Virus record (IMG/VR): IMGVR_UViG_3300030101_003884
Length of the DNA stretch: 56,623 nucleotides
Reading direction: 5' to 3' (one strand)
Source: an uncultured virus (IMG/VR IMGVR_UViG_3300030101_003884)
Taxonomy: Duplodnaviria; Heunggongvirae; Uroviricota; Caudoviricetes
Below are positions 5,322 through 42,763 of the stretch, one piece after another. The notes below the pieces were generated by a model that worked only from the letters and a program-made list of their open reading frames with translations, did no database searches and was not told the DNA's origin. The first letter of the stretch is position 1. Every line of letters starts with the position of its first letter. The translations under genes and the position numbers were made by a program.

Positions 5322-7620
5322 TCTCTAATCTGTCGTCAGATTGTTGATCTTGTTGTGCAAGTCTATCATAATCAAACTCTAAACGCGCAGCAGCTCTTTG
5401 ATTTTCTTGATCTTGTCTAAATTTAGTCTCTTCGACTTTTCTTTGTAGGTCCATAGCTCTTAAATCTATTTCTTGTTGTTTAATTCTTACTAATGGATCT
5501 TGTTTTGCAGCATTTGCTTGCATTTCAGTCTGTGCAAGCTCTTGAGTTATTCTTGCAGCAGCTTTTGCAACTTCTCCTTCGAACATAATATTAAATTGTT
5601 CAGGATCAACTTGTGCCATTTGAGCCATTTCAGGTCTTTGCATTATCATAGCCTTCACTTCTGCTTTTGCTTTGAAAGAAATGTGATCAGATATATGTGA
5701 TTGCATTAAAGCATACACTTGTGGATTAATTTGAACCATTCTTGTAGCCATAAAAGCCATGTGAGCAGCAATATGTGCATCGTGATCTTGAAATTCAAAC
5801 GCAGTAAGTAGTTTCATTTGTAAAGCACGTGCATTTTCTTTAGCAGGATCTAATGGTTCAGGTTGTTTTGGTGGTGGTTTTAACAAAGCTTCAATTTGTT
5901 TTGTGCCTAAAGCCTCATACACACGTCTATAAGCTTCATGAATGTTGTGAATTGCAGGATTTGACTGTGCAATTTGCAATTGTGACTGTGCTAACGTAAC
6001 TCTTTGAGCCATAGACATAATATTTGGATCGGCTACAGGCAAGATATCGATCCTGTTGTCAAAATCTAACTGTTTAATTTCTCTTGGACCACCATAAACG
6101 TCATAAGGATACACAGGCGGTAGTGATTCACCACAAATTCTTGCTAAAATTTTAAATTCTAGACGCATTGCATAGTAACAACGCTTGTGAACACCACTCA
6201 TTACACGTGATCCACGTTCCATCATCGCCATTGTTGTACCAACAGCTCTATTTTGTAAGTCATTTCCTACATTTGAATCTGTTGTGTTAGCAAATTTTTG
6301 TCCTGCTTGTACAACAAAGCCCATTAAGTTGTACAAAGTTGGTGATGGCTCTGTAAATGGTAGGTTAAAAAACTGATCTCTAATGTTTCCACCAGGAGCA
6401 TCTACATCTCTAAACTCTCCAGGTTGAATAGGTTGATCATCATCTCTTACTCTCATACCTCTAGACTTAAATCCAGCAGGTAAATTTTTTAAAGTTCCTG
6501 CATCTATTAGTTGTCTTAAAGCTTGAGTAGCAGCTTGTGATAAACCACCTATCATGTGTGTTAAACCAAATCCATAAAAGCCTAAACCTGGTAAAAATTT
6601 ATAGTGAACAAAATATTCAACTCTTTGATAAGTTGGATCTTCAACTTTATAATTTCTATAAATAGATAATACTTCTCCAGAACCTTCATCGATTGTCACG
6701 ATGTAAGGTATTTTAATTTTTTTAGCTCTATCATCAAACTCTTCAAAATCATCAAGATTTAAATCGACATGCATTTCTAATATTGTGTGTAAGTAATCTG
6801 AACCTGTGCCTTTGATACCTTCAAGCTCGTTTAATTTTTTCTGTACTTGATCTGGTTCACTATTAGAATCTATTAAATTTATATCTCTGTAGAAACCTGC
6901 TGCCATTTTTTTTGTGACTTCGTTTTTAGTCATCTTAATAACATGAGTGATTCTCTCACAATCTTTTAGATCTGAAGCATAATAAGGAACTACTAGATCT
7001 TCAGCTGGTATAAATTTTGATACAGGTCTATCTAACATTGCATCAAAGTAAATTTTTTTAAATGTTGATCCTGATAATGGTAAATAGAATAACATTTGAT
7101 CCATATCAGTTGTGTAATCTTCCATTTCCTCCATCAACAAATAATTCATATAATCTTTAACTCTATCTGCTTGTTGTTCGGTGGCCGGTGTTACTGCACC
7201 TACAACTTGAGTTCTTACTGGTCCATCACTTGGCACTAATTCTTTATAAGCCTGTGCTTGAAATTGTGTGACAGATTCAGCTAATAAAGGATGAGTGACA
7301 CCGGATGCACCTTTAAAAGGTTTTGTGACTTCTTGATATTTAGTGCCTAATAAATCTAAACCTTTGATATAGGCATCTTCCCATTCTTTTCTTGAAGTTT
7401 TATCTTTTTTATATTCTTGAATAAGATCCATACCCATATCTTTAAGAGTACGTTCATCCATTCCCTCTGCAAGATTTGCGTTAAAATCATCTTGTGGTCT
7501 TTCTTCAACGACCTCTTCTTCACCCTCAATTTGTACATCAACAGGTAAACCCTCTGGTTGTTCCTGTTCTTCTTCAAAACCTTCTTGCAATTGTTCGGAT
7601 AATGTTTTTTCTACAGCCAT
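5293..7620 (-). CDS. Portal protein
   Basis: 775 aa, HPLLAESVTQFQA, LPLSGSTFKKIY, PGLGFYGFG, C-terminal coiled-coil barrel; downstream of TerL. Confidence 0.9.
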   Translation of the reverse strand: MAVEKTLSEQLQEGFEEEQEQPEGLPVDVQIEGEEEVVEERPQDDFNANLAEGMDERTLKDMGMDLIQEYKKDKTSRKEWEDAYIKGLDLLGTKYQEVTKPFKGASGVTHPLLAESVTQFQAQAYKELVPSDGPVRTQVVGAVTPATEQQADRVKDYMNYLLMEEMEDYTTDMDQMLFYLPLSGSTFKKIYFDAMLDRPVSKFIPAEDLVVPYYASDLKDCERITHVIKMTKNEVTKKMAAGFYRDINLIDSNSEPDQVQKKLNELEGIKGTGSDYLHTILEMHVDLNLDDFEEFDDRAKKIKIPYIVTIDEGSGEVLSIYRNYKVEDPTYQRVEYFVHYKFLPGLGFYGFGLTHMIGGLSQAATQALRQLIDAGTLKNLPAGFKSRGMRVRDDDQPIQPGEFRDVDAPGGNIRDQFFNLPFTEPSPTLYNLMGFVVQAGQKFANTTDSNVGNDLQNRAVGTTMAMMERGSRVMSGVHKRCYYAMRLEFKILARICGESLPPVYPYDVYGGPREIKQLDFDNRIDILPVADPNIMSMAQRVTLAQSQLQIAQSNPAIHNIHEAYRRVYEALGTKQIEALLKPPPKQPEPLDPAKENARALQMKLLTAFEFQDHDAHIAAHMAFMATRMVQINPQVYALMQSHISDHISFKAKAEVKAMIMQRPEMAQMAQVDPEQFNIMFEGEVAKAAARITQELAQTEMQANAAKQDPLVRIKQQEIDLRAMDLQRKVEETKFRQDQENQRAAARLEFDYDRLAQQDQQSDDRLEIAEKKLEKK

Positions 7621-7622
7621 AA

Positions 7623-9533
7623 TTAATTGTACCTTATTGGTTTAAACATATCTACTACAAGTCCGCCAAAAGCCTTGTAGGTTTTTTGTGTGCCTCTCAT
7701 TAGTGGGTTTACTTTAATAGCAAATGCATCAAAATACAAGGCAGGATTAGAAGAATCAATAAATGTATAACCAGAAACTTCATTTAAATTGGAATCTTCA
7801 TGATATATGCTTTTAATTTTTTTACCTCTTAATTTATGTTTATCAGGGTAAGAAAATTTATCTTCTCTAATTGATTTATAAGGTTTAGATGGATCAGATA
7901 GTGATATTTTTGTAGGACCGGCTTTTGAACCATATAATCTAGCAGCTCTTTTCATTAGATTTGGCATTACTGCTGAACCACTTTTATTAATTCCTTTACC
8001 AGTTGCATAGCCATAAAATCTTTCGTTACCAGCTTTATAGCCTTGACGGAAACTTAATTTGTCAAACGGGGCAACGGCTACATAATCAACATTCTCTCTA
8101 GCTGCTCTTTGCATTAAGTATTTTAATGCATGGTCTCCGTATTGATCTGCCTCAACCATAGGAAAATAATCTTTTGCATCAGTTGTTGACCTTTGACCTA
8201 ATTTAGATAATTGTTTTGTAGAGTTTGCTAATGCATTTGATATAGCTGTCACAAGATTATTATCTCCTTTAGCTAGAGCTTTTTCTAAATCTTGTGATAA
8301 TTTAAATCTTTCGTTTAACAATAGTTTTGTTTCTATATCTTTTTGAAAAGGATTAAATCTAAATTCATCTGACAACTGTTGTGCTTTTGATAATGATTTA
8401 GCAATATTTTGATTTACATCTGATTGTATTTCATTAATCATAAATACTTTTTTTCCATCTGGTGTAAATCTAGTATCAAATCTTACATGATAAATATTAT
8501 TTGTTTCTTTACCTAAAACATCTCCAAAGTGGCCACCTGTATTAAAAGGGTTTCTATTTGTTGGAATTGGTTCTGGTAGTGTCATAATAGTTTCTCTATA
8601 ATCTTTACCACCATCAAGTGTATAATTTCTTTCACCTCCATAATATGTTTTAGAATTTCTTAAAGGTGTCGCAGATTTATTTAATTCTGCTTCAGCTTGG
8701 TTTAATATAGCTTTGTCCTGTTCTCGCACATCAGGTCTAGCTTTAGCTCGTCTTAATGCATTTCTTAAATTTGCAAAAACCGCTGAACTTACGTCACCAT
8801 TTTTCATAGCCCCTAATTCATAAATAGCATCGTCAAAATTTTTAACTAAATCACTATCTGCTCTAAATTTATTTTTTAAGAGGTTAATTCTGTAAGTCAT
8901 ATTTGCGTGTGCCACATCAAAAGATTCTTTTGCTCCTTTTGGTGCTCCAAGTTCTACAGGTCTTAATCTATTTAATGGATTTAGTTTAATCATCGCACCA
9001 ATCTCATTCGCATTAAGTTTTAGACCAAACTTTTTAGCAGCAGCTAATAACCCTCCTGTAAGATCACCGGCTTCATTAAATACAGCTACATTGGTATCAA
9101 ACAATTCATCCTTTGAAATATTTACTTCTCTACCTACAAAGGGTCCTGAATCATATTTAAATTTTTTTTCAGATCGTTCTAATCTTGATGAGGGTCTTCC
9201 AAATACTTTAAAATTTACTTTTCGTGTTGAGGTTAAATGATCTAACCATTCATCTGCTGTGTAAGAGCCTCTTCCTTTTCTCATAACCCAATCATAAGTA
9301 GAAGAGCCAAATGAAGGTGAAATGTCATCACCCATTTGTAAAGGTTTAGTTTTTTTTAAAATAATGGGTGGGTTTTTTATTTCTCGTACAGCTAATTCTT
9401 GACCTTGAGCCTGTGATGGTTTTGGTTCGTAAGTAATTTGTTTTTGTTGTTGTCCGGTGGTCGGTGTTGCTGATTCTTTTTTACCACCAAGAATCCTACG
9501 TCCGATCCCTCGTAAAATGTTTTTAAGGGACAT
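7623..9533 (-). CDS. Large hypothetical protein with EIQSD motif (polyvalent-protein-like, probably virion-associated)
   Basis: HF...HVRFDTR...FMINEIQSD...GNERFY pattern; C-terminal AFGGLV. Confidence 0.6.
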   Translation of the reverse strand: MSLKNILRGIGRRILGGKKESATPTTGQQQKQITYEPKPSQAQGQELAVREIKNPPIILKKTKPLQMGDDISPSFGSSTYDWVMRKGRGSYTADEWLDHLTSTRKVNFKVFGRPSSRLERSEKKFKYDSGPFVGREVNISKDELFDTNVAVFNEAGDLTGGLLAAAKKFGLKLNANEIGAMIKLNPLNRLRPVELGAPKGAKESFDVAHANMTYRINLLKNKFRADSDLVKNFDDAIYELGAMKNGDVSSAVFANLRNALRRAKARPDVREQDKAILNQAEAELNKSATPLRNSKTYYGGERNYTLDGGKDYRETIMTLPEPIPTNRNPFNTGGHFGDVLGKETNNIYHVRFDTRFTPDGKKVFMINEIQSDVNQNIAKSLSKAQQLSDEFRFNPFQKDIETKLLLNERFKLSQDLEKALAKGDNNLVTAISNALANSTKQLSKLGQRSTTDAKDYFPMVEADQYGDHALKYLMQRAARENVDYVAVAPFDKLSFRQGYKAGNERFYGYATGKGINKSGSAVMPNLMKRAARLYGSKAGPTKISLSDPSKPYKSIREDKFSYPDKHKLRGKKIKSIYHEDSNLNEVSGYTFIDSSNPALYFDAFAIKVNPLMRGTQKTYKAFGGLVVDMFKPIRYN

Positions 9534-9541
9534 AGTCCCTC

Positions 9542-11067: not shown

Positions 11068-12546
11068 CTAATAATATTTATACTCTTTTTCTAATTTCAT
11101 TGGTGGGTCGTCCCAATCGTCTGAATACGTAGAAACAAATCCACCTTGTCGATATCTTAACACAGCTTGGGTCATAGAATCAACATAGTCATCGTATTGT
11201 CCATTAGGAAATGCTGCACATTCCTCAATTACTTCTTGAGCAAAATGTTGGTCTAATGGAGCAAATACCATACCAGACTCAAAGACAGGTGCACAGCTAT
11301 TTATACGTGTATGCTTGTCTCTGCCCCTAGCAGGCACATAATCAACTACAGGAATACCTGCACGTCTTAACTCATGTATTAGTGGCTGACCACTAGCTTT
11401 AGCCTCTATTATAACTGTTTCAGGTTCCCAATAATTATATTGTTCTAATGCCAGATTTTTAAGATCAGGAAAATCATATCTACCTTTTTGAGCATCAAGA
11501 AGAATAATACATTTCTCATATCCTTCTACAGGTTCAAATATTCCCCAAGTTGTAATTGCAGAATAGTCCGCAGTTTCTTTTTTTGAAAATGCAGTATCAT
11601 AGGATTGTATTACGTGTAGCAGTTTTGGAAGATGTTCCTTATCATAGTCTTGCCACCACTCACGTTTTATAATTGCACCTTCCTCTGAAGTTGGGTCCTG
11701 CATATACTGTGCATTCCAATTTTTTGTTGAGATTGAAGCTTTGACAGAATCTAAATCTTCTTTACTCCAATATTCAGGCCATACGGGTTGATCGTTTGGA
11801 AGTATGGCAGGAAATTCTATAACGTCCCACTTATCAGCTTTAGGTTCTGATTGTGCTTTGATGAGCCTTCCTGTTAAATCATCAGTAGCCCAACGAGTCA
11901 TTACAACTAAAATTCTACCACCTGGTTGTAAACGTTGTCTGGGTCCTGAACTGTACCATTCATATGCACGTTCCATTGCTGAATCAGACATTGAGTCTTG
12001 TTCAGTATGTGGGTCATCAATAATAAGTAAGTCCGCCCCTCGTCCTGTGATAGAACCGCCAACACCCGCTGCAAAATATTCCCCACCATGATTGGTCTCC
12101 CAACGCCCTTTAGCCTTACTATCTTCTCTAAGTGTAACATTTCCAAATATCTCTTTATACTCTCTGGTATTCATTAAGTTTCTAACTTTGCTACCGAACC
12201 GGGAAGCAAGTTCAGCATTGTGTGATACCTGCATTATTTTTTTCTTTGGATACTTACCAATATACCAAGCAGGGAATAAATAAGATGCAAATTCAGATTT
12301 GGTATGTCTAGGAGGCATATTGATTATGAGCCTCTTTGCATCACCGTCAGCTATTTCTTCAAAAGATTCAGCTATGATTTGGTGGTGGCCATACTTCTTT
12401 GGGTCCTTTGTTTTACGATAAATAAAATCTTGCCAGACAGATTCAGCAAAAATTAAAAAGTTATCCTGGCATAACTTGATCCACTCTAATTGCTTTTTTA
12501 GAATAATATCTTTTAATTCTTCTTCACTAAGGTTTTCAATATTCAT
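11068..12546 (-). CDS. terL: Terminase large subunit
   Basis: MPPRHTKS Walker A, LLIIDD Walker B, QSYDTA nuclease, DDYVDS; likely start MNIENL. Confidence 0.95.
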   Translation of the reverse strand: MNIENLSEEELKDIILKKQLEWIKLCQDNFLIFAESVWQDFIYRKTKDPKKYGHHQIIAESFEEIADGDAKRLIINMPPRHTKSEFASYLFPAWYIGKYPKKKIMQVSHNAELASRFGSKVRNLMNTREYKEIFGNVTLREDSKAKGRWETNHGGEYFAAGVGGSITGRGADLLIIDDPHTEQDSMSDSAMERAYEWYSSGPRQRLQPGGRILVVMTRWATDDLTGRLIKAQSEPKADKWDVIEFPAILPNDQPVWPEYWSKEDLDSVKASISTKNWNAQYMQDPTSEEGAIIKREWWQDYDKEHLPKLLHVIQSYDTAFSKKETADYSAITTWGIFEPVEGYEKCIILLDAQKGRYDFPDLKNLALEQYNYWEPETVIIEAKASGQPLIHELRRAGIPVVDYVPARGRDKHTRINSCAPVFESGMVFAPLDQHFAQEVIEECAAFPNGQYDDYVDSMTQAVLRYRQGGFVSTYSDDWDDPPMKLEKEYKYY

Positions 12547-12690
12547 ACCGTTTGGGACCCTAGTATATTTATATATCCTACTTTGTAAACCCGTTCGCCA
12601 CGTTGTCGTGAGCCATCTCACGTGGAAATTTGTGGTGAAATTTTAAAAAGTAAAAAGTTAGATTTTTAGAGCCTTCTATGGCGTAGATAC

Positions 12691-13388: not shown

Positions 13389-13589
13389 TTAATTTAATTT
13401 TTTTTTATCTTTTTTATTAAGTCTATCAATAATGGTATTAACATTTGGTTCAACCTCTAGTTGTAATGATCTTTCTAAAAATTTCACAAGTTCCGTCAGC
13501 TGCCTTGTCATCTTATCTTGTTCTCGTTGTCCTGCACCACGAGAACGAGACGAGCCGACATTGTCGGCTCGTTTAATATCTTTCGGCAT
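13389..13589 (-). CDS. Hypothetical early protein
   Basis: ORF coupled to upstream stop. Confidence 0.55.
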   Translation of the reverse strand: MPKDIKRADNVGSSRSRGAGQREQDKMTRQLTELVKFLERSLQLEVEPNVNTIIDRLNKKDKKKLN

Positions 13590-15151: not shown

Positions 15152-15337
15152 CTAAACTTCTAACCTTACCGGGAGGGGGCTCTGCTCAGCGTAACCCCCA
15201 GCCCCATGTTTTTATTATACGAGAACGAGGTCTATCCGAGAACGAGAACGAGATCCTGCTGCACCATCCATGCCGTTACCGGGCCACCGACTACAAAGAG
15301 GTAAAAGGAGTCGGTGGCCGGGAAACGACAACGAGGA

Positions 15338-15748
15338 TCACGCTGCTTCGGGAGGAGATCCCAGCTCCGTCAGTAACCTTCGCTGGATGATGGGCCATTC
15401 AAACGGGAACGTGAACGAAGCAAACGACACGAGGGTACGAGGATCAGTAAACACGGACACCGGTCTGTACAGTTTAAGGAGTCTCTTCAAAGGGGTCTCT
15501 TTGAAGATAATTACCTTACCACCTGCCAAAATATACTTGTTGATCCAAACAATTTGCCATTTATTTAGCTTGGGATAACTTAATGAATCTGATTTAAGTT
15601 CAATCCAAAATACTTCGTTATTCATAACAGCGTGTATGTCAGGTATACCATTAATTGTGCTAGATTCTATGCGGGTTAGAAAGCAATCAGTCAGTCCTTT
15701 TTTTATCTTCTGCCAGAGTTTAGATTCGGGATTTTTAGATATTGTCAT
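15338..15748 (-). CDS. PD-(D/E)XK nuclease (VRR-NUC / Holliday junction resolvase-like)
   Basis: E...GIPDI...WIELK...Q..W. Confidence 0.8.
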   Translation of the reverse strand: MTISKNPESKLWQKIKKGLTDCFLTRIESSTINGIPDIHAVMNNEVFWIELKSDSLSYPKLNKWQIVWINKYILAGGKVIIFKETPLKRLLKLYRPVSVFTDPRTLVSFASFTFPFEWPIIQRRLLTELGSPPEAA

Positions 15749-16047: not shown

Positions 16048-16186
16048 CTACCTTCACCTTTATTTTACCAACATAAGAAACAATTTTAGAGTTATGTACT
16101 TGGTTAAAAACATTTAACCATTCAGACCAACTAGCTTTCTTCAATTGCTGCAACGTCTTGGGACTCAACCTCAATCGTTTTGGCAT
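16040..16186 (-). CDS. Small hypothetical protein
   Basis: 3' part of ORF 16040..16294 from MPKRL; fills the gap between terS and the next gene. Confidence 0.45.
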   Translation of the reverse strand: MPKRLRLSPKTLQQLKKASWSEWLNVFNQVHNSKIVSYVGKIKVKVDD

Positions 16187-16661
16187 TGTGCCCATCGATC
16201 TTGTCCGATAATTCCTGAAGTTTTTTTTCAAGTTGTTCACGTGACATACCCTCCAAACCACTGACTCTAACCTCTTTTCTATCAACATAAGCACCAGCTA
16301 ATTGACCTGATCGATACTCAGCATTAATAGCAGCTGCATATTGTTTATCCTTTTCGGCTTTGTCAGAAATTCTTTCTAATCTTTTATATCTTCTTAAGTT
16401 GTCACCTTCGTATTTTTTTACTTCTCTTTCAAATAATTTATCAAAATATTTAGCGATATGTGGGCTATGCTTTCTAGATAACATTCTAGATGCAACAGAT
16501 CCATAATCTTTCTCATTAGTGCAAACATAACCTGCACGTTTAAGTGCTTCAGCTTGTGTTATTGATCCCCAATCTTTTACGTATATCTCTACAAACATTT
16601 TTTGTTTAGGAGTAAGATCAAGTTCTGTTCTTGCAGATTTCTTTTTAAGTCCACCAGGCAT
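16131..16661 (-). CDS. terS: Terminase small subunit
   Basis: LTPKQKMFV...AEALKRAGY...ASRML HTH; AAINAEYRSGQLAG. Confidence 0.8.
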   Translation of the reverse strand: MPGGLKKKSARTELDLTPKQKMFVEIYVKDWGSITQAEALKRAGYVCTNEKDYGSVASRMLSRKHSPHIAKYFDKLFEREVKKYEGDNLRRYKRLERISDKAEKDKQYAAAINAEYRSGQLAGAYVDRKEVRVSGLEGMSREQLEKKLQELSDKIDGHNAKTIEVESQDVAAIEES

Positions 16662-16867: not shown

Positions 16868-16970
16868 AATTACCGCCTATTTCTTCTTTATCCCATAATA
16901 ACAACAGGAACAACACAAAGCTATAGGTTAAGGCTATGAATCCCAAAGATATTAAAAGATCAATGAACAT
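16860..16970 (-). CDS. Small membrane peptide (36 aa)
   Basis: Manual ORF MFIDLLISLGFIALTYSFVLFLLLLWDKEEIGGNYE. Confidence 0.5.
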   Translation of the reverse strand: MFIDLLISLGFIALTYSFVLFLLLLWDKEEIGGNYE

Positions 16971-16977
16971 TAATTTC

Positions 16978-17206
16978 TACTATATAGATTATTCTACCCT
17001 TTTAAAATAGTCCAAAAAACTTTCGATAACGTTCCCGCAAGAGTGGTGTATCCCAGATACACCATAGATACACCATAGATACACCACTAAAAACGATTAA
17101 AAGTGTTGGTATAGTTGAATAATAGTTCATTAGATACACCAGATACACCACTTTAGACCCCTGGGGTACTTTTTATTAATCAAAGGTCTAGAATATCTAT
17201 ATAGTA
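16978..17206. repeat. Iteron-like locus, putative replication origin
   Basis: Five direct AGATACACCA plus one inverted TGGTGTATC, bracketed by the inverted pair TACTATATAGATTATTCTA / TAGAATATCTATATAGTA. Confidence 0.7.
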
Positions 17207-17215
17207 TATTTTTAG

Positions 17216-17232
17216 ATTAGAATCGTTCTAAA
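17216..17232. promoter_or_regulatory. Second ICE-like box
   Basis: ATTAGAATCGTTCTAAA, 16/17 match to TTTRGAAYNRTTCYAAA; shares trailing CTA with the first copy. Confidence 0.55.
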
Positions 17233-17372
17233 CTATAATTATTGTTGTCCGGTGTCCGGTTTTCGTGTAAACTTGTGGTGTGTTTGTTTTTATTAACATC
17301 ATATCATTGATCCCTGGAGTAAGTCATAATTTAGCTCTCTTGATCGCTCCAGGGGTTTTACATCCCACATGA

Positions 17373-17765
17373 CTAGGTTAATTTTTTATTATTTTCTTTA
17401 ATTATAAGATCTCTAATCTTTCTTCTCTCTTCCTTACTATTAGCCTCTCGATACTGTTTATATAAACTTCGATACCGGATCCAACCTATTTGCATTTCAG
17501 TAAATTTAATTTTTCCATTATCTACCATTTTAAGATATTCACCTCTTACAAAATCAGGGTCAAGTTCAGCTCCCCAACACACCCGTTGAAAGTCATTTGA
17601 ATTGTCTACAAACCAACAATGGCTATCATGTTTATGATACGTTTCTTTTTTAAAATTAGAAATATTTGTAGCATCCTCCAGAGCCTGTACTAATATAGCT
17701 TGAAACAATCGCTGCTCTGCGAATGCTTTCGGTTTTGTAATTTCTAGGCTCAATTTAATGCCCAA
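17373..17765 (-). CDS. Conserved hypothetical protein (start uncertain)
   Basis: EQRLFQAILVQALEDA...WF...DF..VC..AELDP motif. Confidence 0.75.
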   Translation of the reverse strand: MGIKLSLEITKPKAFAEQRLFQAILVQALEDATNISNFKKETYHKHDSHCWFVDNSNDFQRVCWGAELDPDFVRGEYLKMVDNGKIKFTEMQIGWIRYRSLYKQYREANSKEERRKIRDLIIKENNKKLT

Positions 17766-17982
17766 AAATTTTAGTAAGCTTGGAGCACATGTCATAAGCC
17801 TTTTTTTTGTCCATTGTAAAGGATCGTGGAAGTTTCTTATAACCTGGCTCTTCATAAACTCTGTTATAAAGATCCCACATTCTTTCAAGATAATACATAC
17901 GCTCTTCACCTGTCATCAGAGCTAAAATAATAATAGATTCTTTTAATAATCCCTTATTCTTGATGTTCATTAGCATAACCAC
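17755..17982 (-). CDS. Hypothetical protein
   Basis: ORF in operon. Confidence 0.6.
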   Translation of the reverse strand: MVMLMNIKNKGLLKESIIILALMTGEERMYYLERMWDLYNRVYEEPGYKKLPRSFTMDKKKAYDMCSKLTKIFGH

Positions 17983-18020: not shown

Positions 18021-18272
18021 TTAAGCATTTTTAACGACTAGCTTTATGCCCCTAGATTCAGCAGCACGTTTACGCCCTAATCGCCATCTATCCTCAATTT
18101 TATCAAGGAAAGAAAGACTGAAATTTCCTAAACCAAAGTCATTTCCACAATACAACTGAAACATCAAACTAGTTAACTCATCATAAGTTTTTTTGTTTGG
18201 ACACACCATTACTAGCTTATCCAACGCCTGATTTAATGCTTCTTCACTGCTTTTTTTTACAGCTTTACCCAC
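18021..18272 (-). CDS. Hypothetical protein
   Basis: Probable GTG start after AAAGGA. Confidence 0.65.
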   Translation of the reverse strand: MGKAVKKSSEEALNQALDKLVMVCPNKKTYDELTSLMFQLYCGNDFGLGNFSLSFLDKIEDRWRLGRKRAAESRGIKLVVKNA

Positions 18273-18468
18273 AAAATATCCTTTTATTAAAGTTAATTTT
18301 GTTTTTCGTTGTTCGGTGAAAATAAAGTGTTTTGAAAGCCCCACTTTTTCATTTAGGCTTAGGAATACATTTTAACCTATTATTAAATATGTGACTTAAA
18401 TGCAACAATTAAATTTAAAAAAATTGCGGGTATTAATTAAAGGGAGGTAATAATTATGGGTAATTAAT

Positions 18469-18540: not shown

Positions 18541-18756
18541 CTATTTACCTTTTAGAAGTTTGTTGCCTTCTGCAAGTAAATTCTGTTTCATTTTATCATA
18601 GCTAATATTTTGTTTTTTAGCTATTTTTTTGACTTCATCGTCTACCAATTTAGCTATCATATTACCAGGTCTTCTAAAACCATTTTGGCCCATAGCTCTA
18701 ATAATTGTATATGATTCAATATCAACTGCACAAGATTTCCATTTATTTATATTCAT
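18541..18756 (-). CDS. Putative ribbon-helix-helix DNA-binding protein
   Basis: MNINKWKSCAVDIESY... start after GGAGG; beta-alpha-alpha pattern. Confidence 0.6.
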   Translation of the reverse strand: MNINKWKSCAVDIESYTIIRAMGQNGFRRPGNMIAKLVDDEVKKIAKKQNISYDKMKQNLLAEGNKLLKGK

Positions 18757-20450: not shown

Positions 20451-22319
20451 TTATTCTTTTGCTTCACCCCATGATTTACCAAGTGCAACATCGACTTTTG
20501 AAGGAACTTTAAAATCAGTAATAGCATTTTCCATAATCTCTTTAACATTTTTAATGTCGGATTCTTTATCAATTGAAAAACATAATTCATCATGTATTTG
20601 TAATAATGGTTTATAACCTGCTTTATAACAATCAATCATAGCTTGTTTTGTTTGGTCCGCTGCAGAACCCTGTATTAATCTGTTTAAAGCTTTATAAGTA
20701 AAAGCTCTTCTAATATTATTTCCATAAACCGCTTTAGCCTCCTCATATTGCATGGCTTTGTTCATTCCAAAGGTAGAGGGCTCCCACATGTCGAATCGGC
20801 ATTTACGACCCCTTATCGTGCGAATAAAGCCATATTTTGAAGCAGAGCTAGACACGTCTGTAGCTAATTGTTTAACAAAAGGGACTCTTTGGCCATATTT
20901 AATTAAAAGATTTTCCGCTTTATCTTTAGAAATACCTAATTCTTTTGCTAATTTTGCCTTCCCCATGCCATAAAATAGACCCAAATTAATCGTTTTAGCT
21001 TGTGTTCTTGTAATTTGTGCCATATCTGCAACTATTTGGTGAAAATCAGCTGACTCGTTCTTATAAGCTTCAATAAACTCTAAACTCCCAGAAAACTCAT
21101 TATTAGTAGAGGCAGCGTAATGAGCAACTATTCTTGGTTCTTGTTGTGAATAATCAAAACTACCCCATTGTCTACCTTCTTCAGGTAAAAATAAACTTCT
21201 TATTTTATTTCCATATTCTTTGTTTCTTGCAGGAATCTGTTGTAAATTGGGGTTAGAATAGGACAGTCTTCCTGACACAGTTCCTCCCTGATCAGATCTA
21301 AGTTGATTTATTTCTGAATGTATTCTACCTTTATGAACATATCTTTGAATGGAGTCTATGAATGTTGAATGGAATTTATTTATTTCTCTTGCTTCTCTTA
21401 TTAGTTGCGCTATCGGGTTATCACAGTTTACTAACCAGTTTTGGGTAAAGCTTGGTTCTCCGGTTTTCGGTGTCCGTGGGTAGTCTACTCCTATCCTATC
21501 AAACACCTGCGCTACAGATCTTGCAGCCCAAATATCTACATCAAGAGTAGTTTGTTTTTTTATATTATGTAAAACCTCTGATTCTTTTTTTTTAAATTCT
21601 TTTTTAAGCTTTGCTGCTTGAGCTTCGTCTACCCTTATACCTTTTCTTCTTGTTTCAATTAGTATAGGTAGGAGCTCCATCTCCATATCCCAAACATCAT
21701 TAAGACTTTGTTTAGAAATTTCTGTTTTAAATCTTTCCCATAGACGTAAAGTCAAAGCTGCATCTTGTTCAGCATAAAATCCAACATAGCCTGCAGGTAA
21801 TCTCCAAAGGTCAGCTTTCGGATCTATACCCCACTCTTTTGCTTTTTCATTTAAAAATGTTTCGTTTTTTATTTCACCAAGATAATCTTTGGCACATGCA
21901 TTAAGACTAAAACTATATCTGTTTTCGTTTATTAAAGCTGCAGCAATCATTGTATCAACTATTTGACCACGTATTTCAAAACCATTTACCAATAACCAAC
22001 CTACGTCATAACTTGCATTATGAAAAATTTTTGTAGCTGGTAATTTTAATATATCTTGAAACCACGCGCAGGTTATCGACAGATCCATATTACCACCTGC
22101 ATCGTGTTGAATAGGAAAATACCATTGTTGGCCAAGAGCTGCCACTGCAAAACCAACTATACCACCATCAAAAGTTGCCCAACCCGCACCTTTAGTTTTA
22201 ATGTTAGGATCTTTTGTTTCTAAATCGATCGCTATTTCTTTTGCTTGTGATAAATCAGGATATTCCGATGGACATATCCAGTCGCTATCGTTGTATATAA
22301 AATTAAGTTGATGAGTCAT
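20451..22319 (-). CDS. polA: DNA polymerase family A with 3'-5' exonuclease
   Basis: DLET ExoI, HNASYD, GRLS...PNLQQIP, DYSQQEPR, RTQAKTINLGLFYG, IHDE. Confidence 0.95.
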   Translation of the reverse strand: MTHQLNFIYNDSDWICPSEYPDLSQAKEIAIDLETKDPNIKTKGAGWATFDGGIVGFAVAALGQQWYFPIQHDAGGNMDLSITCAWFQDILKLPATKIFHNASYDVGWLLVNGFEIRGQIVDTMIAAALINENRYSFSLNACAKDYLGEIKNETFLNEKAKEWGIDPKADLWRLPAGYVGFYAEQDAALTLRLWERFKTEISKQSLNDVWDMEMELLPILIETRRKGIRVDEAQAAKLKKEFKKKESEVLHNIKKQTTLDVDIWAARSVAQVFDRIGVDYPRTPKTGEPSFTQNWLVNCDNPIAQLIREAREINKFHSTFIDSIQRYVHKGRIHSEINQLRSDQGGTVSGRLSYSNPNLQQIPARNKEYGNKIRSLFLPEEGRQWGSFDYSQQEPRIVAHYAASTNNEFSGSLEFIEAYKNESADFHQIVADMAQITRTQAKTINLGLFYGMGKAKLAKELGISKDKAENLLIKYGQRVPFVKQLATDVSSSASKYGFIRTIRGRKCRFDMWEPSTFGMNKAMQYEEAKAVYGNNIRRAFTYKALNRLIQGSAADQTKQAMIDCYKAGYKPLLQIHDELCFSIDKESDIKNVKEIMENAITDFKVPSKVDVALGKSWGEAKE

Positions 22320-22836: not shown

Positions 22837-23036
22837 ATTTTAAATTCCTGTAAAATTTTAATTTTTTCTTCAGCTTGTGCTATTTTATCTACTAATTTAT
22901 CTACCTCATCAATATGTTGTGGATGTTCTCCTATCCCAACCGCTTTTTCAAAATATATTTTTATTGTAGCTTCAGCTTCTGATATCTGTGCATTATATCT
23001 ATCTTCCAAAGCATTTATAATTAATTTTCTAAACAT
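22833..23036 (-). CDS. Conserved hypothetical protein
   Basis: VGIGEHP motif. Confidence 0.75.
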   Translation of the reverse strand: MFRKLIINALEDRYNAQISEAEATIKIYFEKAVGIGEHPQHIDEVDKLVDKIAQAEEKIKILQEFKI

Positions 23037-24639
23037 AGTTTGCCTCGTATTGTTTAAAGTATTTTCCTAAAGGAAAGTTATATTGATGATAAGTACCTAA
23101 CAGATGAAGCGTTTGTTTACATCTAGTAGCACCAGTGTACCAAACTCTTAACTCTTTAACTTTATCTGCTAAATTTTTTTTATCAAAATGAGATGGGAAG
23201 TTGCATTTACTTGCTAAAACAACATTATCAGCTTCTCCACCTTTTACTTGATGTATTGTATCTATAATAATTTTAGGTGGTTGTGTTAAATCCACACCTT
23301 CTTTCATTAACTTTTGAAAATATTGTTTATCTTTGTCTTTAAATTTTCTTTTAAACACCTGATTCCATGAACTTTTTTCATCTCGCATACCACACCTTAA
23401 ATGTAATTCATCAAAAGTAAAGACTTGATTTGGATGTGCAAAACTCCACTTTTTACTATCTGATGACCGGTAGCCGTGATCTATGTTTAATAAATATTCA
23501 TACATGGTAACAGCTTCCTCTCTATTTATGCTGCCACCCTCACATATTTTTTCCCAATATTGTATTGCATAAAACTGATTCGGATCAAATGATTTATTAT
23601 TCTTTTGATCTTGGTAATATAAGCCAAGATTTTTAGCCTCTGTTTGTAATTCTTTTTTAACATCGTTTATTCTTGCAAGAACCATCCAACTCCCATCCAT
23701 ATCCCAAGGAACTTTTTTTAAACCATTCCATCTAAAAATAGCCCCGTCTTTGTCATTAGAATAAAATTCTTTTGGCACTCTATTGTCACCCATAGAATTT
23801 AATAAACATTTAGAAAAAAAGTGAATGTTTTTATTTAATCTTACTGATTTTTTTAACACAAGCGATTTTCCTGGAAAGGTTTGAAATAAAGATACATCAG
23901 CACCATTCCATTCGTATATTGCTTGATCGTCATCTCCTGCGATGTAAACACGTTCTACGCCTTCAGACATTTTTACAACCATATCCCACTGTAAAGGTGT
24001 AAGGTCTTGAGCTTCATCTACCATTAATACTTTAAAAGGCACTACTAAACCATCACTAATAAATTTTTCTACCATATCAGTAAAATCTAATCTATCCGGT
24101 GTCCGTTGTCCGTTCTCTAGTTCCATTGTTTTAAATTCTTCGTAGCCATTAATAATTGATTTAAATTGCTGCAACCTTACAGCTTTTCTAGATTGCTGTT
24201 TGTAAAGCCATACAGGATCTACCTTCATGTTTCTTGCTCTATCATATATTTGTAAAGACCAATTGTTGTAAACCTTTTGATCATCGTGGCCTTCTTTGTA
24301 TTTAATTTTAATTGTTCCATATTGTGTATGAAATATAAGCATATCTGCTTTTGGATCTAATACAGGTATTTCAGCAAACTGTTGTCTTGCAAGAGAGTGG
24401 AGTGTCCTAAAATATTTAAACGCATCTTCATCATAACCCTTAAATTTTTGTCTAACTCTAGTCACACATTCATTTACAGCTTTGTTTGTAAAAGATACAT
24501 AACATATCTCATCAGGAGAATATCCCTTTTCAAGATAACGTTTTACACGTTTCAAAAGGTTTTCTGTTTTTCCAGTGCCTGGTGGTCCAAAAATTTTAAT
24601 TGTCTTCCCACGCAGCCTTTGCTTTAACGAATTTGACAT
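23029..24639 (-). CDS. UvrD/Rep-like SF1 DNA helicase
   Basis: GPPGTGKT, VDEAQD, GDDDQAIY, TIHQVKGGE, YTGATR. Confidence 0.9.
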   Translation of the reverse strand: MSNSLKQRLRGKTIKIFGPPGTGKTENLLKRVKRYLEKGYSPDEICYVSFTNKAVNECVTRVRQKFKGYDEDAFKYFRTLHSLARQQFAEIPVLDPKADMLIFHTQYGTIKIKYKEGHDDQKVYNNWSLQIYDRARNMKVDPVWLYKQQSRKAVRLQQFKSIINGYEEFKTMELENGQRTPDRLDFTDMVEKFISDGLVVPFKVLMVDEAQDLTPLQWDMVVKMSEGVERVYIAGDDDQAIYEWNGADVSLFQTFPGKSLVLKKSVRLNKNIHFFSKCLLNSMGDNRVPKEFYSNDKDGAIFRWNGLKKVPWDMDGSWMVLARINDVKKELQTEAKNLGLYYQDQKNNKSFDPNQFYAIQYWEKICEGGSINREEAVTMYEYLLNIDHGYRSSDSKKWSFAHPNQVFTFDELHLRCGMRDEKSSWNQVFKRKFKDKDKQYFQKLMKEGVDLTQPPKIIIDTIHQVKGGEADNVVLASKCNFPSHFDKKNLADKVKELRVWYTGATRCKQTLHLLGTYHQYNFPLGKYFKQYEANYV

Positions 24640-27513: not shown

Positions 27514-27582
27514 ATTTTCCTCCTATGCGCTCATAAATTATTTAATTGATCTTTGCAACAAAAAAATATAAAAACTTTTTTG

Positions 27583-29848: not shown

Positions 29849-32800
29849 CGTTCCTCCTTGCTATTTCCTGAGATGTTGGATCATTAGGAAACAATGCAGC
29901 TACTTGTTGAGCTCTATTTTGTCCGGTGTTCGGTAGCGTTGGAGCTTCAGGAGGTGTTAAAACTGGACTTTCTAGTTGTAAGTCTCCCATGACTGAAGCA
30001 AACTCCTCTTGATCTCTTTCTGCCTCTTCTCTATCTACTACCGCATTATTTTGTAGTGATCTATCAATCATACCAACTAAATTATTATCTTCTTCAACAC
30101 TACCCGAAGATTTACTAAAATCATTAGCAAATAAAACTTCTTTAACTTTGTTAGGAACATTTTGTTCATACAAAGGTTCAGGTATAGACATGGGTAAGTT
30201 AGACAATTTATCAATTATTTCTGCTTCACTAATATTTTTAGGATCAACTCTAGGTATATCTTTATCTTCTTCACCTAAATAATTTATTAATCTAGCTAAT
30301 GCATCTCTTTTTCTAGTTAAACCTAATTTTAAAGCAGATTCAGTTACAGCTTTTGTTTTACCTAAAATAGTATTTGTCTTTAAAGCATCGACAATTGTAT
30401 TAATACTTCTTCCTGTATAATAATCTCTACCAGGTAAAAAAGTTGCTTTTGGTGTACCTGTTCCTAATTTTTCACCTCTTAAAAGCTTTAGTGTTTCTTC
30501 AGGTAGCAATGCATCGTTCATTGCTCTCAAAGCCACAGGATCTGTAAGTATTTGACCTGCTCTTCTTGTTAATAAAAGAAACGCAGCAGATGCTATTAAA
30601 CCAGCACCTCCAAATGCTAAACCTAAACCACCAACAACTCCGCCACCTAGTGTTAATCTTCTAGCTAAAAATTGTGATGGATCCGATACTTTTGTTTCAC
30701 CAATAGCTTTCATGTATGAAGCAAAATTGTAAAATTCTTCTGCACCTTTATTACCAAGCATATATTGAATTTTTCTTCTACCAGCCTCATCAAATGAATT
30801 TGCAATACCAAAAGATTTCATAAATTTATCTGCACTGAAATCTCCGAACTCATCACCACCAAATTTTAACGCTGTAGTATCAAATATACCGTTGTTTCTT
30901 TTTACAGTTTCAATACTAAAATCATTAAGATTTCTTTTTTGATCTCTTGTCATAACTTTAAGTGTGTCTGTTAAATATGAAGCTCCTGCTCTCACTGATG
31001 CGTCTTCATCAACAAAGTTTAAAACTGATTTAGCACCTGCATCAGCTGGCGCATTAAAAGCTCTTAAAAATTTATTAAAAGCGTATTTTGCTGTAACTGC
31101 TTTAAATAAATCTTTTCCGCCTTCTGTTGCTTTTGAACCTATTTCTCTTGATCCTTCAGCACCAATAAGTTTTTTAAATTGAACTAAAGCATCTACAGAA
31201 TCATTCTCAAATACTTCTCTACCTATATCTTTAAATAATTGATCTCTATATTGTGTTCCAGCTCCTTGAAAACCCTCTAAACTTTTTGCAGTAAATGCAT
31301 TTCTGTCAAATTTTTTTAAACTTTTTACTAGGGGTGACATTTGATAAAAACCTTGCACATCAGCAAATATTTTATTTGCTTTTAATAGTTGATCTTTAAG
31401 TTGTTCTGCTGCTTTTATATTTGTCTGTATATATTGATCTGCTAAATCTTTTCCACTTTGTTGTGTAATTGTATCATAAGTTGCTTTAATACCTTCATCT
31501 TGTAAATATTTAGATGGATTATAAATGTCTTCTCCAAACTTAGCAAAATCTGTTTCCATAGCTTCACGCATTATAAACATATTATCTTTCAAAGTTGCAT
31601 ATCTACTTCCTTCGATTGCATTATTCAACATAGTCATTACACCTTTAAATTGTTTAGGTGTAATCATATTATCTTGTAATTGAATCATTGATTTCATAAA
31701 CATATTTATTGGATCTGATTGCATAGTTAATATTTTATCTATATCAACTTGTTTAACAGGGGCAGCCCCTCTAAAACCAGATAAGTATTCTGAAAATTCA
31801 GGAAACTGTGCTTCACTTTCTTCTAAAAATTCTCTAGCAGCTTTTTGAGTTTTTTCTAATTTAATTATTCTTGGATTACCTGAAGTTGTGACTAAATTAT
31901 CAAAAGTTTTATAAGCGCTATTATATAAATCAGTGTTTTGAATAAATACCTTTTCAGCTTGTTGTCTAACAGCTGCATTTATAGCACTTACTTTGAGTAA
32001 TGGTGCATACGCTTGTAAATCAGATAAGTATCTTTTACCACCTGCAATCTCCGCTTCCGATTTAGCAATCTTACCTACAGGTGCTACTAGTGGAAATACC
32101 CCCATAAATTTAAAATAATTTTTACCAAGTCCAGAAAAAGTACCCTGACCATCTTTTAAAGCAGATAAAAGAGGTAATGGTAAACCTTTATCACGTGCGA
32201 ATGTAGCTAATTCTTTTTGTTTTGGTCCTACTGTTCCAAAACCTTTTCTTATCATTTTACCAAAAGGTCCAAAGATAAATGGAGATAACAAAGAGGCCCC
32301 TGTATTCCACATCAAAGCATTCTTCATTGCTACACCTGCATTAACTAATTGATCTCTTTCAACTTCTCCTTCAGGTATTTCAGATAAATCATCTGCTAAA
32401 GCTGATGCTATTTGTACTCCTGCTTGTTCATTTAAAGTATCATAAGTCAAAGATCCTACTCCTGCACCTGCAGTACCCCCTAATATCGATTGTACTTCTG
32501 TTTTTAATAGTGGTCCTCTATAAGCTCTTGAGAGTGGATCTACTAATTTTCCAACTGCTTTAATAGCACCTCCAAATAATTTAAATCTACCTGGTAATTT
32601 ATCTGCTATCTTTACAGCTTGTTGTGCAAAGTATCCTGGACCCTTACCAAATAGTGTTCCATCTTTTGCAGCTCTAAATATTTTTTTTCTATTATAAACA
32701 TATGGAAAAATACTACCTGTTATATCTCCCGCTAACTCATAAGTCGGCTGTCCAACACCTGTTCCTGCTTTTAAAGGATTTTGTAAAAATTCTTTTTCTC

Positions 32801-36078: not shown

Positions 36079-36082
36079 AATA

Positions 36083-39311: not shown

Positions 39312-39314
39312 GTA

Positions 39315-39515: not shown

Positions 39516-39517
39516 AA

Positions 39518-39980: not shown

Positions 39981-40141
39981 GATATAAACCAGGTAAATGT
40001 ATCTTGTTCATTTTTTAATTCTTGTTGGTAAGACGTATTTAACTTATCTTGCATAGTTCGTAAAGACTGATTTATTTGTCTTTGATTTTCTTCAGTATAT
40101 CTAGGAGTTGGTTCTGGTATAACTATATCTACTCTAGCCAT
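39977..40141 (-). CDS. Small tail-associated protein (54 aa)
   Basis: Manual ORF MARVDIVIPEPTPRYTEENQRQ...TWFIS. Confidence 0.65.
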   Translation of the reverse strand: MARVDIVIPEPTPRYTEENQRQINQSLRTMQDKLNTSYQQELKNEQDTFTWFIS

Positions 40142-40604: not shown

Positions 40605-42763
40605 TATCCCCTCATACCATCTAATTGAACATCTGCTCTAAAAGTTCCAAAGCGCCAATTTTCATCTGTGCTAGTATTTGCAATTTTTAAACTTGCAAAT
40701 CTAGCTCTTGCCCGTGTGTCTACTTTCTTTGTTGATCCGGTGACCGTGAATGGTCCTAGTGGAGACGATGTTTCTGTATCAGCAGGAAAATCTCTCAACA
40801 AAATAGTAATTTGAGCATTACCTTGTATTGTTTTAAAATCGGGTACAAACCTTCTCATGCTCATAAAGAACTCAGCATTTGTGCCATCAGGATTTAAACT
40901 AAAATCCCCAGATTCAATAAAAGCTGGTATGGCAGTTTTATTACCAGAGGTGTCTACTTCATTAACACCTTTTTCATGTTCAAAATATTTAGTAGACCCA
41001 TTAATATTTGTAATACCTTGAACAGTCGGAAACGTAGGTAAGCCTGTAGAATTAAATTCTGTTGCATATGGATTTTCGTAAAGATTAGCATCAACCCAAG
41101 TAGTTCTCGATAAAGAGCCAGTCACCCATGTTCCATCTTGGTAATTATAACAAACATATCTATCATTAAAATCAGATGTTGCTTGTGGATAGTACCAACA
41201 AATCTCTTCGTATAAATGATTAAGACCCGCATACACTGATTCCCCTGCAGAAAAATTTACTCCTAGATTATTACCATTTTTAGTTGTAAATACAAAATCT
41301 TCAACTGCACAAGGCAGTGATTTTACTGTGCCGTCATAAACAAAAAAACCGCCAGATTCTCCCATCCAATAAACAATACCATTAACATATTTCATAGCGT
41401 GTTGACCAATACATCCGCAATTAGAACCCACTTGTCTAATAGAAAAGGTAAAGGGTGGTCCAACAAATTGCATTACGTATGCAGCATTATCCGTAACAAT
41501 AAATGTGTAATCTTTACCATGAACTGCACCTACTATTTTTGTGCCTGAGTCTAATCTAAAAGTTCCTGCTGTATTAACTGAAGTAGGTGTGTAATCAGTT
41601 ATATCTTCTTGATCTGAAAATCTAATAAACATTTTGTCTTGTGTTCCAGGAGTTCCAATAGTAGTTTCAGTTCCAAACATAATTAAATGTCTATCCCTAT
41701 CCGAAACTAATGACATAACAGATGCAGTTGGTGCATTTGATATTATTGCTGCTCTGGTAGTTAAAGCATTAGGATTTGAATTAATAGGATTCCAAGAAAA
41801 AGATTGACCATTTTTTATAGTAGCAATTAACTGTTCACCAAAATTATCTAAAGACCAAGATGCAGGATCTATTGAAAGAGTTTGTGATAATGATTCAATA
41901 CCCCATCCTGTAAATACTTCAACACCTGCACCGCTTGAGTGCGCAGATCTAGTTCCCGCTGCAGCTCTTGTAATACCAGTAAGATCGTTTGATGAGATTC
42001 CTGTATATGAAATAAATTCAGCTCCTACTTTGATCGTGCCAGTTGATGGAAACCCTGATGTTGATGTAAGAGTAATCGCTGTGCCAGATCCTCCTGTTCC
42101 AGCAGTGTCATCTAACAAAGCTCCATTTAATGTGCTAAACACTTGTTGTCCACCACCCCAAAGTCCTGTTCCCCATCCAAATCCAAACGTTGAACCTAAA
42201 GCTCCTGGTTTTATGTATGGAGTGATTGTTGCAGATCCTGATCCGTTGACCGTTGTCCCTGCTGCGCTAGACATTGTAATTGTAAACTCGTCACTGTTAG
42301 GAACAGTAACTACTTGAAAAGGATTTGTTGTAAAATCTGTGCCTGAATATCCTGCACCTGTTGGAGGAGTCACAGATGAAAAAAGAAAAATATCTCCTGG
42401 CTCTAAACCATGTGCGGGTTTGTTTACAGTTACTGTAGTTGATGTATTAACAGTATCAAATGTAATTCCTGTGATTGCTGTACCTAAAGGGGTAATGTCA
42501 AAAAAGGCACCTTCGTAATAAATCACTAATACCTTATTTGTGCCTATTGCAGCATATTTTCTACCATCAAGATCAGCCCAAATAAATTGTTCTCTTGCTG
42601 CTCCTACTATAGTATTTTCTAAAAGTTGTTCCCAACCACCTATTTTTTCTGGAAGACCATATCTGAACCTTACAAAATCACCATCAGTCCATTTACCTTC
42701 AGCTCCAGTCTGAGTGACTTGTTTATTAAATCCAGGGGCTATTTGTACTTTTGTTAAAGGCAT
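40604..42763 (-). CDS. Tail stabilisation/nozzle protein (P22 gp10 / T7 gp12-like)
   Basis: 719 aa beta-rich; VRFRYGLPEKIGGW, FIRFSDQE, TRARAR...WRFG. Confidence 0.75.
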   Translation of the reverse strand: MPLTKVQIAPGFNKQVTQTGAEGKWTDGDFVRFRYGLPEKIGGWEQLLENTIVGAAREQFIWADLDGRKYAAIGTNKVLVIYYEGAFFDITPLGTAITGITFDTVNTSTTVTVNKPAHGLEPGDIFLFSSVTPPTGAGYSGTDFTTNPFQVVTVPNSDEFTITMSSAAGTTVNGSGSATITPYIKPGALGSTFGFGWGTGLWGGGQQVFSTLNGALLDDTAGTGGSGTAITLTSTSGFPSTGTIKVGAEFISYTGISSNDLTGITRAAAGTRSAHSSGAGVEVFTGWGIESLSQTLSIDPASWSLDNFGEQLIATIKNGQSFSWNPINSNPNALTTRAAIISNAPTASVMSLVSDRDRHLIMFGTETTIGTPGTQDKMFIRFSDQEDITDYTPTSVNTAGTFRLDSGTKIVGAVHGKDYTFIVTDNAAYVMQFVGPPFTFSIRQVGSNCGCIGQHAMKYVNGIVYWMGESGGFFVYDGTVKSLPCAVEDFVFTTKNGNNLGVNFSAGESVYAGLNHLYEEICWYYPQATSDFNDRYVCYNYQDGTWVTGSLSRTTWVDANLYENPYATEFNSTGLPTFPTVQGITNINGSTKYFEHEKGVNEVDTSGNKTAIPAFIESGDFSLNPDGTNAEFFMSMRRFVPDFKTIQGNAQITILLRDFPADTETSSPLGPFTVTGSTKKVDTRARARFASLKIANTSTDENWRFGTFRADVQLDGMRG

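Follow-up and report, generated by a model that had tools for sequence, protein, structure and literature searches.

Polar, tandem seven-nucleotide repeats as probable DNA-level sites within the genes of an HTVC023P-type pelagiphage

We analyzed a stretch of 56,623 nucleotides (nt) from an uncultured virus of the Caudoviricetes (IMG/VR record IMGVR_UViG_3300030101_003884), hereafter the window, and detected in it tandem heptads, i.e., sites made up of two or three head-to-tail units of 7 base pairs (bp). The core of the unit is YCGKT, which in the lineage of the window usually takes the form YCGGT. Comparison with related genomes showed, at the level of sequence, that selection maintains these heptads at the nucleotide level, independently of the reading frame and nearly all on one strand, with turnover between lineages. 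We regard the heptads as very probably a functional element at the level of the DNA, and it is also probable, with less confidence, that they are recognition sites for a protein.

CpG dinucleotides are scarce in the window (840 CG, observed/expected 0.53), as the initial annotation of this DNA had noted, and all 23 CG coordinates which it listed are CG in the contexts given. The pattern YCGKNNNYCGK has 14 matches on the + strand (positions 7178, 9454, 15311, 17249, 17256, 18306, 21460, 21467, 23467, 24096, 24103, 29923, 40737, and 42243) and 4 on the - strand, which bears out the strand bias previously claimed. The + coordinates in the earlier list of sites were correct, but the pair at 18306 was absent from it; similarly, the matches are dispersed, as the description "genome-wide" implied, but the strict ones cover only 7.2–42.3 kb. 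Among the 260 YCGK words of the + strand, 14 pairs were found at a spacing of 7 nt and at most 6 at every other spacing between 2 and 60, and the complementary word had no peak at 7; triples account for part of an additional excess at a spacing of 14. The proposal that CG exactly 7 nt apart would be special by itself had to be abandoned, as bare CG–CG pairs were less frequent at spacing 7 (24) than at 6 (39), 9 (26), or 15 (33). The enrichment at 7 nt is thus confined to the YCGK context.

Three types of within-gene shuffle were performed, 300 of each: synonymous, synonymous with the dinucleotides at codon junctions kept, and shuffling of codon order. Across the three types, the mean number of + strand pairs was 4.3–4.9 and the maximum 9, versus 14 observed, these means including 3 fixed sites, as 3 of the 14 sites lie outside gene calls. 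None of 2000 junction-preserving shuffles, in which both protein and codon usage were kept, attained 14 (mean 4.9), so that the count exceeds codon-preserving shuffles as the initial annotation had anticipated. The - strand count of 4 was close to its shuffle mean (3.3–3.6). The excess was also observed in three nearly complete relatives with 78–81% nucleotide identity to the window over the aligned parts, i.e., G002 (12 pairs vs a shuffle mean of 4.1), G003 (10 vs 3.4), and G004 (13 vs 4.0), as well as in G015 (6 vs 1.5) and in Pelagibacter phage HTVC023P (8 vs 2.1), the observed count being reached in 0 of 500 shuffles for each of the five. In G002, G003, and G004 the 12, 10, and 13 pairs form a peak at spacing 7 over a background of 1–3. 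The motif had been defined post hoc, and therefore a scan of every 4-mer at periods 4–15 was added. In the window, CGGT at period 7 took second place (5 observed, 0.03 expected), after CGAG at period 6 (6 observed, 0.03 expected), and CGGT or CCGG at period 7 was among the top four in three relatives.

In the frame of the genes, most sites read NCG-xxx-xxC-GRx, and a spacing of 7 nt can result from a CpG at codon positions 2–3 followed two codons on by a CpG at positions 3–1. The peptides encoded (TPATE, TPTTG, TPKTG, LPNTG, TVTG, and TVNG) are mostly of the type Pro/Thr-x-Thr/Asn-Gly/Glu. CCG represents 6% of the Pro codons and ACC 6–8% of the Thr codons genome-wide, but both are nearly fixed at the sites, and the flanking codons vary freely among relatives. 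The retention of CpG at synonymous positions averaged 0.70–0.73 in the motif (n = 16) versus 0.26–0.30 for 346 others of the same codon classes (Mann–Whitney p = 7e-7), so the synonymous constraint in homologues which the initial annotation had proposed to look for was indeed found. The 11 coding pairs spread over three frames (6/2/3), the frame given above being common to six of them. Coding as a sufficient cause was ruled out by the shuffles and the rare-codon data; we conclude that coding is not the cause because the shuffles fall short of the observed count, rare codons are fixed, three frames are used, and one triple is non-coding, in agreement with the earlier remark that protein coding does not easily explain the motif. 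These patterns indicate that the constraint acts on the nucleic acid, independent of the reading frame. A plain scan of synonymous entropy is confounded by AT-biased codons; in a scan for rare codons (9457 scoring windows), those with the motif occupied places 9, 14, and 20 of the top 25 non-overlapping ones, several of the higher ones being on + strand calls judged spurious or at the overlap of the helicase and primase genes.

The window can be assigned to an HTVC023P-type, podovirus-like pelagiphage because its portal protein is 61% identical to that of HTVC023P; the identity to that of HTVC027P is 52%. In the available parts of the literature, the HTVC023P-type group is described as lytic phages of SAR11, more abundant in the ocean than any other known phage group; HTVC023P and HTVC027P are stated to have been isolated on the same host strain, and a function is assigned to about 17% of the predicted open reading frames (ORFs). 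Genes were annotated by scans against PHROGs (76 window proteins) and Pfam (47), from which the portal (5293–7620), TerL (11068–12621), TerS (16131–16661), DNA polymerase A (20451–22319), a UvrD/PcrA-like helicase (23029–24639), and a PrimPol-like primase (24596–26167) were identified on the - strand, and an SNF2-like helicase (27553–29010) on the + strand, as well as a Cas4-like exonuclease and several 2-oxoglutarate (2OG) oxygenases. In crude gene calls, the - strand holds 62 of the 77 window genes, and the GC skew tracks gene orientation and gives no origin. A megablast of 12 kb of the window against a phage collection gave no match, and nothing was found in tRNA and Rfam scans of the window. 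Five or six + strand paralogues at 42830–46072, matching PHROGs of the 2OG-Fe(II) oxygenase and "ferrochelatase" type, have a GC content of 0.25–0.27, and the gene content of this block differs widely between relatives. Runs of N occur at the left end of the window, at 182–191 (10 bases) and 840–879 (40 bases), in the ORFs 2–334 and 393–1838; the latter ORF, which contains an N run, was excluded from the protein scans and shuffles.

Ten of the 11 heptad loci of the window are inside ORFs; the sites described here are on the + strand unless stated otherwise, and their conservation is given among those relatives whose alignment covers the site. The pair in the portal gene (TCGGTGGCCGGT, 7178..7189; sense ACA CCG GCC ACC GAA) is kept in 63 of 74 relatives, with CCG in 61/72 Pro codons and ACC in 61/61 Thr codons, and those portal variants whose peptide has changed have lost the two CpGs jointly. 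Close to the 5' end of the gene for a protein of 636 amino acids (7623–9533), the pair CCGGTGGTCGGT (9454..9465) is kept in all 39 relatives (CCG, ACC, and GGA each 38/38) and has the lowest synonymous entropy among the 400 windows of this gene. In the UvrD/PcrA-like helicase gene, the pair CCGGTAGCCGTG (23467..23478) is kept in 82 of 83 relatives, 43 of the 83 having an additional third unit at 23460, and its synonymous entropy is the third lowest among 478 windows. The same gene contains the triple CCGGTGTCCGTTGTCCGTT (24096..24114), whose pairs are present in 41/83 and 50/83 relatives and which consists of three perfect CCGGTGT units in G004. A further triple, CCGGTTTTCGGTGTCCGT (21460..21478), lies in the DNA polymerase gene; its pair at 21460 is lineage-restricted (14/57 relatives), the other pair is present in 30/57, and CpG retention is 21/55, 52/55, and 54/55. 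At 40–120 nt from this site, an island of synonymous conservation was observed in the polymerase gene (21339–21425), including the CpGs 21408 and 21414, which are conserved in 49–51 of 54 relatives.

The remaining coding pairs are CCGGTGTTCGGT (29923..29934) near the 3' end of the gene for a 1048-amino-acid protein, kept in 16 of 22 relatives (CCG 14/14, ACC 17/19, GGA 19/19); a weaker pair, TCGTTGTTCGGT (18306..18317), in gene 18021–18344, present in 7 of 18; and two pairs in the virion structural protein gene, CCGGTGACCGTG (40737..40748), lineage-restricted (15/66), and CCGTTGACCGTT (42243..42254), present in 36/63, the word of the latter being found again in the more distant G009, G012, G013, G014, G017, G018, and G020. 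The only triple covered by no ORF, CCGGTGTCCGGTTTTCGT (17249..17267), is in a non-coding stretch (505 nt) situated upstream of a small gene and of terS, and its first pair is present in 7 of 9 relatives. The reverse-orientation copy noticed in the initial annotation does exist, as the pair CCGGTGTCCGT (- strand letters) at 15453..15463 on the - strand, within the sequence that encodes the C-terminal part of a PD-(D/E)XK-like nuclease (gene 15338–15748). The gene is conserved along its whole length, over residues 4–136 in G002 and G004, and its mismatch rates by codon position favour the - ORF. The pattern match at 15311..15321, which had been counted as a member, is probably not one, as it is lost in G002 and G004 and is part of a hairpin arm (15271–15292/15309–15330). 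This hairpin, just downstream of the nuclease gene, has 22-nt arms with 86% complementarity and a 16-nt loop. An irregular heptad-like cluster of CpGs, TCCGTTTCGGTGTCGCCGT (2266..2284, outer units 14 nt apart), retains its CpGs in 24–25 of 25 relatives, and G003 and G004 have a regular pair at 2298.

The word is lineage-specific. It is mostly YCGGT in the clade of the window (CGGT or CCGG, each at period 7), where G002, G003, and G004 have also gained sites with this word at positions that are not homologous, the new sites absent from the window having the consensus TTGT-YCGGT-RK-YCGGT. In HTVC023P, the 8 pairs are all on one strand and their word is YCGTG (7 occurrences of CGTG at period 7 versus 0.07 expected); they lie at approximately 1479, 5349, 6191, 9660, 11615, 17983/17990, and 54944 of the record. 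In more distant records the words are YCGTG or YCGTT, and the counts are one-sided (5:0, 6:0, 5:0, 4:0, and 3:0); HTVC027P had no heptad pairs in the same count. The combination of conservation, turnover, and a changing word is the pattern that a site co-evolving with its recogniser would look like. In HTVC027P (L091), at about 16.5–17.7 kb of the record, we also observed arrays of CAAGCNN heptads of approximately 3–6 units, two of which directly adjoin the -35 box (TTGACA) of sigma70-like promoters, followed by a Shine–Dalgarno sequence and ATG, and three more are inside gp32.

Across 12 related genomes, 93 pairs are + oriented and 16 - oriented. The former comprise 78 in - strand genes, to which they are antisense, 12 outside gene calls, and 3 in + strand calls, while most of the latter are ACGAGA(A) repeats of the 13.5–15.4 kb region or homologues of the 15453 pair. 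The SNF2 helicase gene, encoded on the opposite strand, contains a triple specific to G009 (found in 1 of 45 aligned sequences), and this triple nevertheless has the genome-wide orientation; in a - strand gene, the 15453 pair has the reverse orientation, which all 6 covering relatives share. These two cases disfavour an mRNA-level or strictly transcription-relative element and, judged from the aligned sequences, gene orientation alone cannot account for the strand bias.

The non-coding stretch upstream of terS (16868–17372) contains, in order, iterons, a palindromic arm, and the triple heptad. Five direct iterons AGATACACCA and one inverted copy (17044..17150, + strand) lie at about 100 nt from the triple, with the direct copies at 17055, 17066, and 17077 (11-bp period), 17132, and 17141 and the inverted one at 17044–17053. 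At no more than one mismatch, the iteron word has 16 matches versus 3.4 expected, with additional exact copies at 12685 and 27319. The same order of iterons, a gap of approximately 70–110 nt, and heptads is found in G002, G003, and G004, with the triple at the same place relative to the iterons; in HTVC023P this place is taken by 4 copies of a different iteron word, TTTTCCTAGT, after which comes the heptad word of that phage. The stretch looks like a putative origin or packaging-initiation (pac) region, and from the conserved non-coding iteron context we infer that the heptads would be tied to a DNA transaction.

Several other repeats were observed around terS. Inverted repeat arms of 32 nt (14187–14218/17213–17244, 81% complementary) flank a segment of about 3 kb including terS, and the heptad-like sites within this segment have the reverse orientation. 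The terS gene of HTVC027P is itself inverted with respect to its neighbours. ACGAGA(A) hexamers and heptamers occur on the + strand at 13536, 14302, 14428, 15216, 15239, 15322, and 15406, mostly in spacers between small genes, in a segment with a GC content of 0.40–0.43 versus 0.34. A promoter or terminator role was rejected, since a scan of 13.0–20.5 kb gave 21 promoter-like matches versus a shuffle mean of 24.1, 5 terminator-like ones versus 4.3, and no consistent partner element. A 77-bp "terminal repeat" of G002 was also set aside; it looks like the overlap of a circular assembly and says nothing on physical ends.

Overall, we tentatively read the heptads as cis-acting DNA sites for a phage-encoded protein in a strand-specific DNA transaction, preferably nicking, and give this reading somewhat less than an even chance. 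Of the processes put forward in the initial annotation (terminase, directional translocation or ejection, primase, and anti-termination), none is favoured over the others by the data. Heptads would be placed in coding sequence wherever the encoded protein tolerates them, and a phage-encoded, sequence-specific protein would bind neighbouring units cooperatively, with one protomer per 7 bp, by analogy with omega/ParB of pSM19035, and would take part in a strand-specific DNA transaction rather than act on mRNA. If this were strand-specific nicking, two nicks on the same strand, 7 nt from each other, would release a heptamer, and a short gap would result. Helicases of the PcrA/UvrD type require an entry point such as a gap, and such a gap might be a loading site for the UvrD/PcrA-like helicase, PolA, and PrimPol, or for packaging. 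It is possible, but rather unlikely, that the heptads are nick or gap sites. A more specific scheme, in which a nickase of an unrecognised family would cut programmed gaps, a dozen per genome on one strand, for replisome entry or packaging control, with the word co-evolving with the enzyme, is distinctly unlikely.

The resemblance to omega/ParB concerns the architecture of the sites. Its binding sites are described, in the available parts of PMC9499535, as 5'-WATCACW-3' heptads binding one ribbon-helix-helix (RHH) dimer each, the affinity being low for a single unit but high for two, and, like the heptads, they are contiguous, non-palindromic 7-bp units in direct repeat with an exact 7-nt phase. 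However, the omega arrays have 7–10 units and overlap promoters, as far as that account goes, whereas the heptads are 2–3 units inside genes; the omega sites are also without genome-wide polarity, and the RHH protein is only a candidate here.

As to nicking, the available portions of PMC3517423 describe fourteen nick sites in phage tf, on the top strand only, with consensus positions similar in relatives but a different word, and nicks of phiKMV on the non-coding strand, the function of localized nicks being still unknown according to that text. The heptads resemble these T5, phiKMV-like, and tf/LUZ24-like sites in having a short consensus on one strand, with approximately 10–14 copies per podovirus genome of 40–60 kb, and in having positions common to relatives with a lineage-specific word (PMC3517423, same portions). 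The nicks in T5, phiKMV, and tf have been proven physically, while the heptads are putative sites and no nickase gene was recognised. In the consulted parts of PMC4027164 and PMC3592412, HNH nickases of the phage N.phiGamma family are reported to cut YCG/GT (= AC/CGR), and to be encoded beside terminase genes; this site is identical, letter for letter, to the YCGGT unit of most sites in the clade of the window. A tandem layout is not described for those enzymes in these parts.

Several points weigh against the proposal of a phage-encoded binder or nickase acting on the heptads. No binding protein was identified, and the RHH-like candidate (18541–18756, most likely the RHH protein of the initial annotation) is without support: it has no Pfam match at E <= 5 and no Foldseek match at E <= 0.001, and its AlphaFold2 model (predicted local distance difference test score of 68.9) has three helices and a disordered N-terminus. 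The only HNH subfamily searched genome-wide, PF01844, was found in 0 of 5 related genomes at E <= 0.1, and no HNH or GIY-YIG domain was detected in the PHROGs and Pfam scans of the window proteins, nor by Pfam in 72 of 102 extra ORFs of G002–G004. The nucleases retrieved by the scans were only the PD-(D/E)XK-like nuclease, the Cas4-like exonuclease, and a weak LAGLIDADG match; the first of these (15338–15748) has no match to PDB sequences at E <= 5 and none in NCBIfam, and a search of 17373–17909 against an atlas matched only unnamed viral clusters. All 20 runs that contain the stretch (of 21 listed) are stored as contigs. Contig ends, a weak proxy of nicks, lie within 25 nt of a site in 7 of 222 cases versus 4.7 expected, a number reached in 380 of 2000 simulations. 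The match to the N.phiGamma site extends over only 5 nt and may be due to chance, and the nick consensuses of T5, phiKMV, and tf are, in the available parts of the sources, single words of 7–19 nt and not 2–3 phased degenerate units. The 15453 pair is reversed, and the argument from orientation is based on two cases, a very small sample in which the one with genome orientation is a single lineage-specific site. In addition, the compared genomes share descent, and counts across them are not independent.

A stoperator-like role, in which a phage regulator on asymmetric sites would block or pause RNA polymerase according to orientation, also at promoter-associated repeat arrays, seems unlikely. 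The stoperators of Cluster A mycobacteriophages are described, in the available parts of PMC9283540, as more than 20 dispersed, asymmetric, consistently oriented sites, located both at promoters and inside transcription units, those of the L5 type being asymmetric 13-mers whose orientation tracks transcription. The heptads share with them the dispersal, the asymmetry, and the consistent orientation, and their lineage-specific word, the antisense position of 78 of the 93 + oriented pairs in - strand genes, a site density that is highest in the early/replication module, the repeat arrays in the spacers of 13.5–15.4 kb, and the heptad arrays of HTVC027P next to TTGACA promoters would all fit such a role. 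On the other hand, stoperators belong to temperate phages, where they occupy, according to the same parts, short gaps between genes and follow transcription, whereas the heptads belong to a group described as lytic, with no repressor or integrase in the PHROGs and Pfam scans, and most of them are deep within ORFs, distant from gene starts. Neither of the two informative cases follows transcription: the G009 site in the opposite-strand gene is unflipped, and the 15453 pair is reversed within a - strand gene. The same two cases would give mRNA the complementary sequence, which speaks against an RNA element, i.e., a sense repeat ACCGR-NN-ACCGR in mRNAs bound by a protein or small RNA controlling stability or translation. 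Although nearly all sites are transcribed in one sense and 6 of the 11 coding pairs share a frame, this alternative is quite improbable: three frames are in use, the non-coding copy adjoins iterons, a DNA-type context, and neither Rfam matches nor tRNAs were found. A hairpin of the form CCGG-NNN-CCGG was dropped because conserved CCGTT and CCGTG units cannot pair, and the inability of CCGTT-type units to form it is a further point against the RNA element.

The heptads could also be directed at the host, either as a Chi-like signal taming a host nuclease of the AddAB/RecBCD type or as sequences shaped by host restriction. Chi sequences are typically short, polar, over-represented pentamers, and a bias to one strand resembles the evasion of Type III restriction, but we consider this option highly improbable. 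The host strain of isolation is the same for HTVC023P, with 8 sites, and HTVC027P, with none, which makes a Chi-like signal for the host unlikely, and the word differs among closely related clades; a tandem 7-nt phase is not a known feature of Chi, and restriction evasion would remove sites and not fix them via rare codons. Lastly, the sites could be without function, having arisen as a side effect of peptide motifs, of codon-pair bias, or of some peculiarity of mutation. Many of them do encode similar peptides of small residues (TPATE, TPTTG, TPKTG, LPNTG), and the motif was defined only after examples had been seen, but this explanation is exceedingly improbable and already largely refuted, as shuffles keeping the protein and junction dinucleotides never attain the observed count, rare codons are fixed at the sites, the non-coding copy is conserved, and the unbiased scan of words by period recovers the motif in four genomes.

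In the consulted text on HTVC023P-type phages, the term "promoter" is absent, "nick" is absent (searched in PMC9599517 only), and "motif" and "repeat" occur only for Curli proteins (4 places in PMC9599517; "repeat" was not searched in PMC12753301). The heptads are polar, dispersed phage cis sites, distinctive in being phased tandem pentamers inside ORFs with fixed rare codons. They represent a clear case of overlapping information limiting codon choice, with fixation of rare CpG-containing codons in a genome poor in CpG, and their recognition word marks lineages. As a conserved, polar, in-gene signal, they provide a handle on replication, packaging, or regulation in these phages. If the heptads were indeed sites of nicks or gaps, the nicks of T5, phiKMV, and tf, as yet unexplained, would have a counterpart in marine phages, and one with a testable function.

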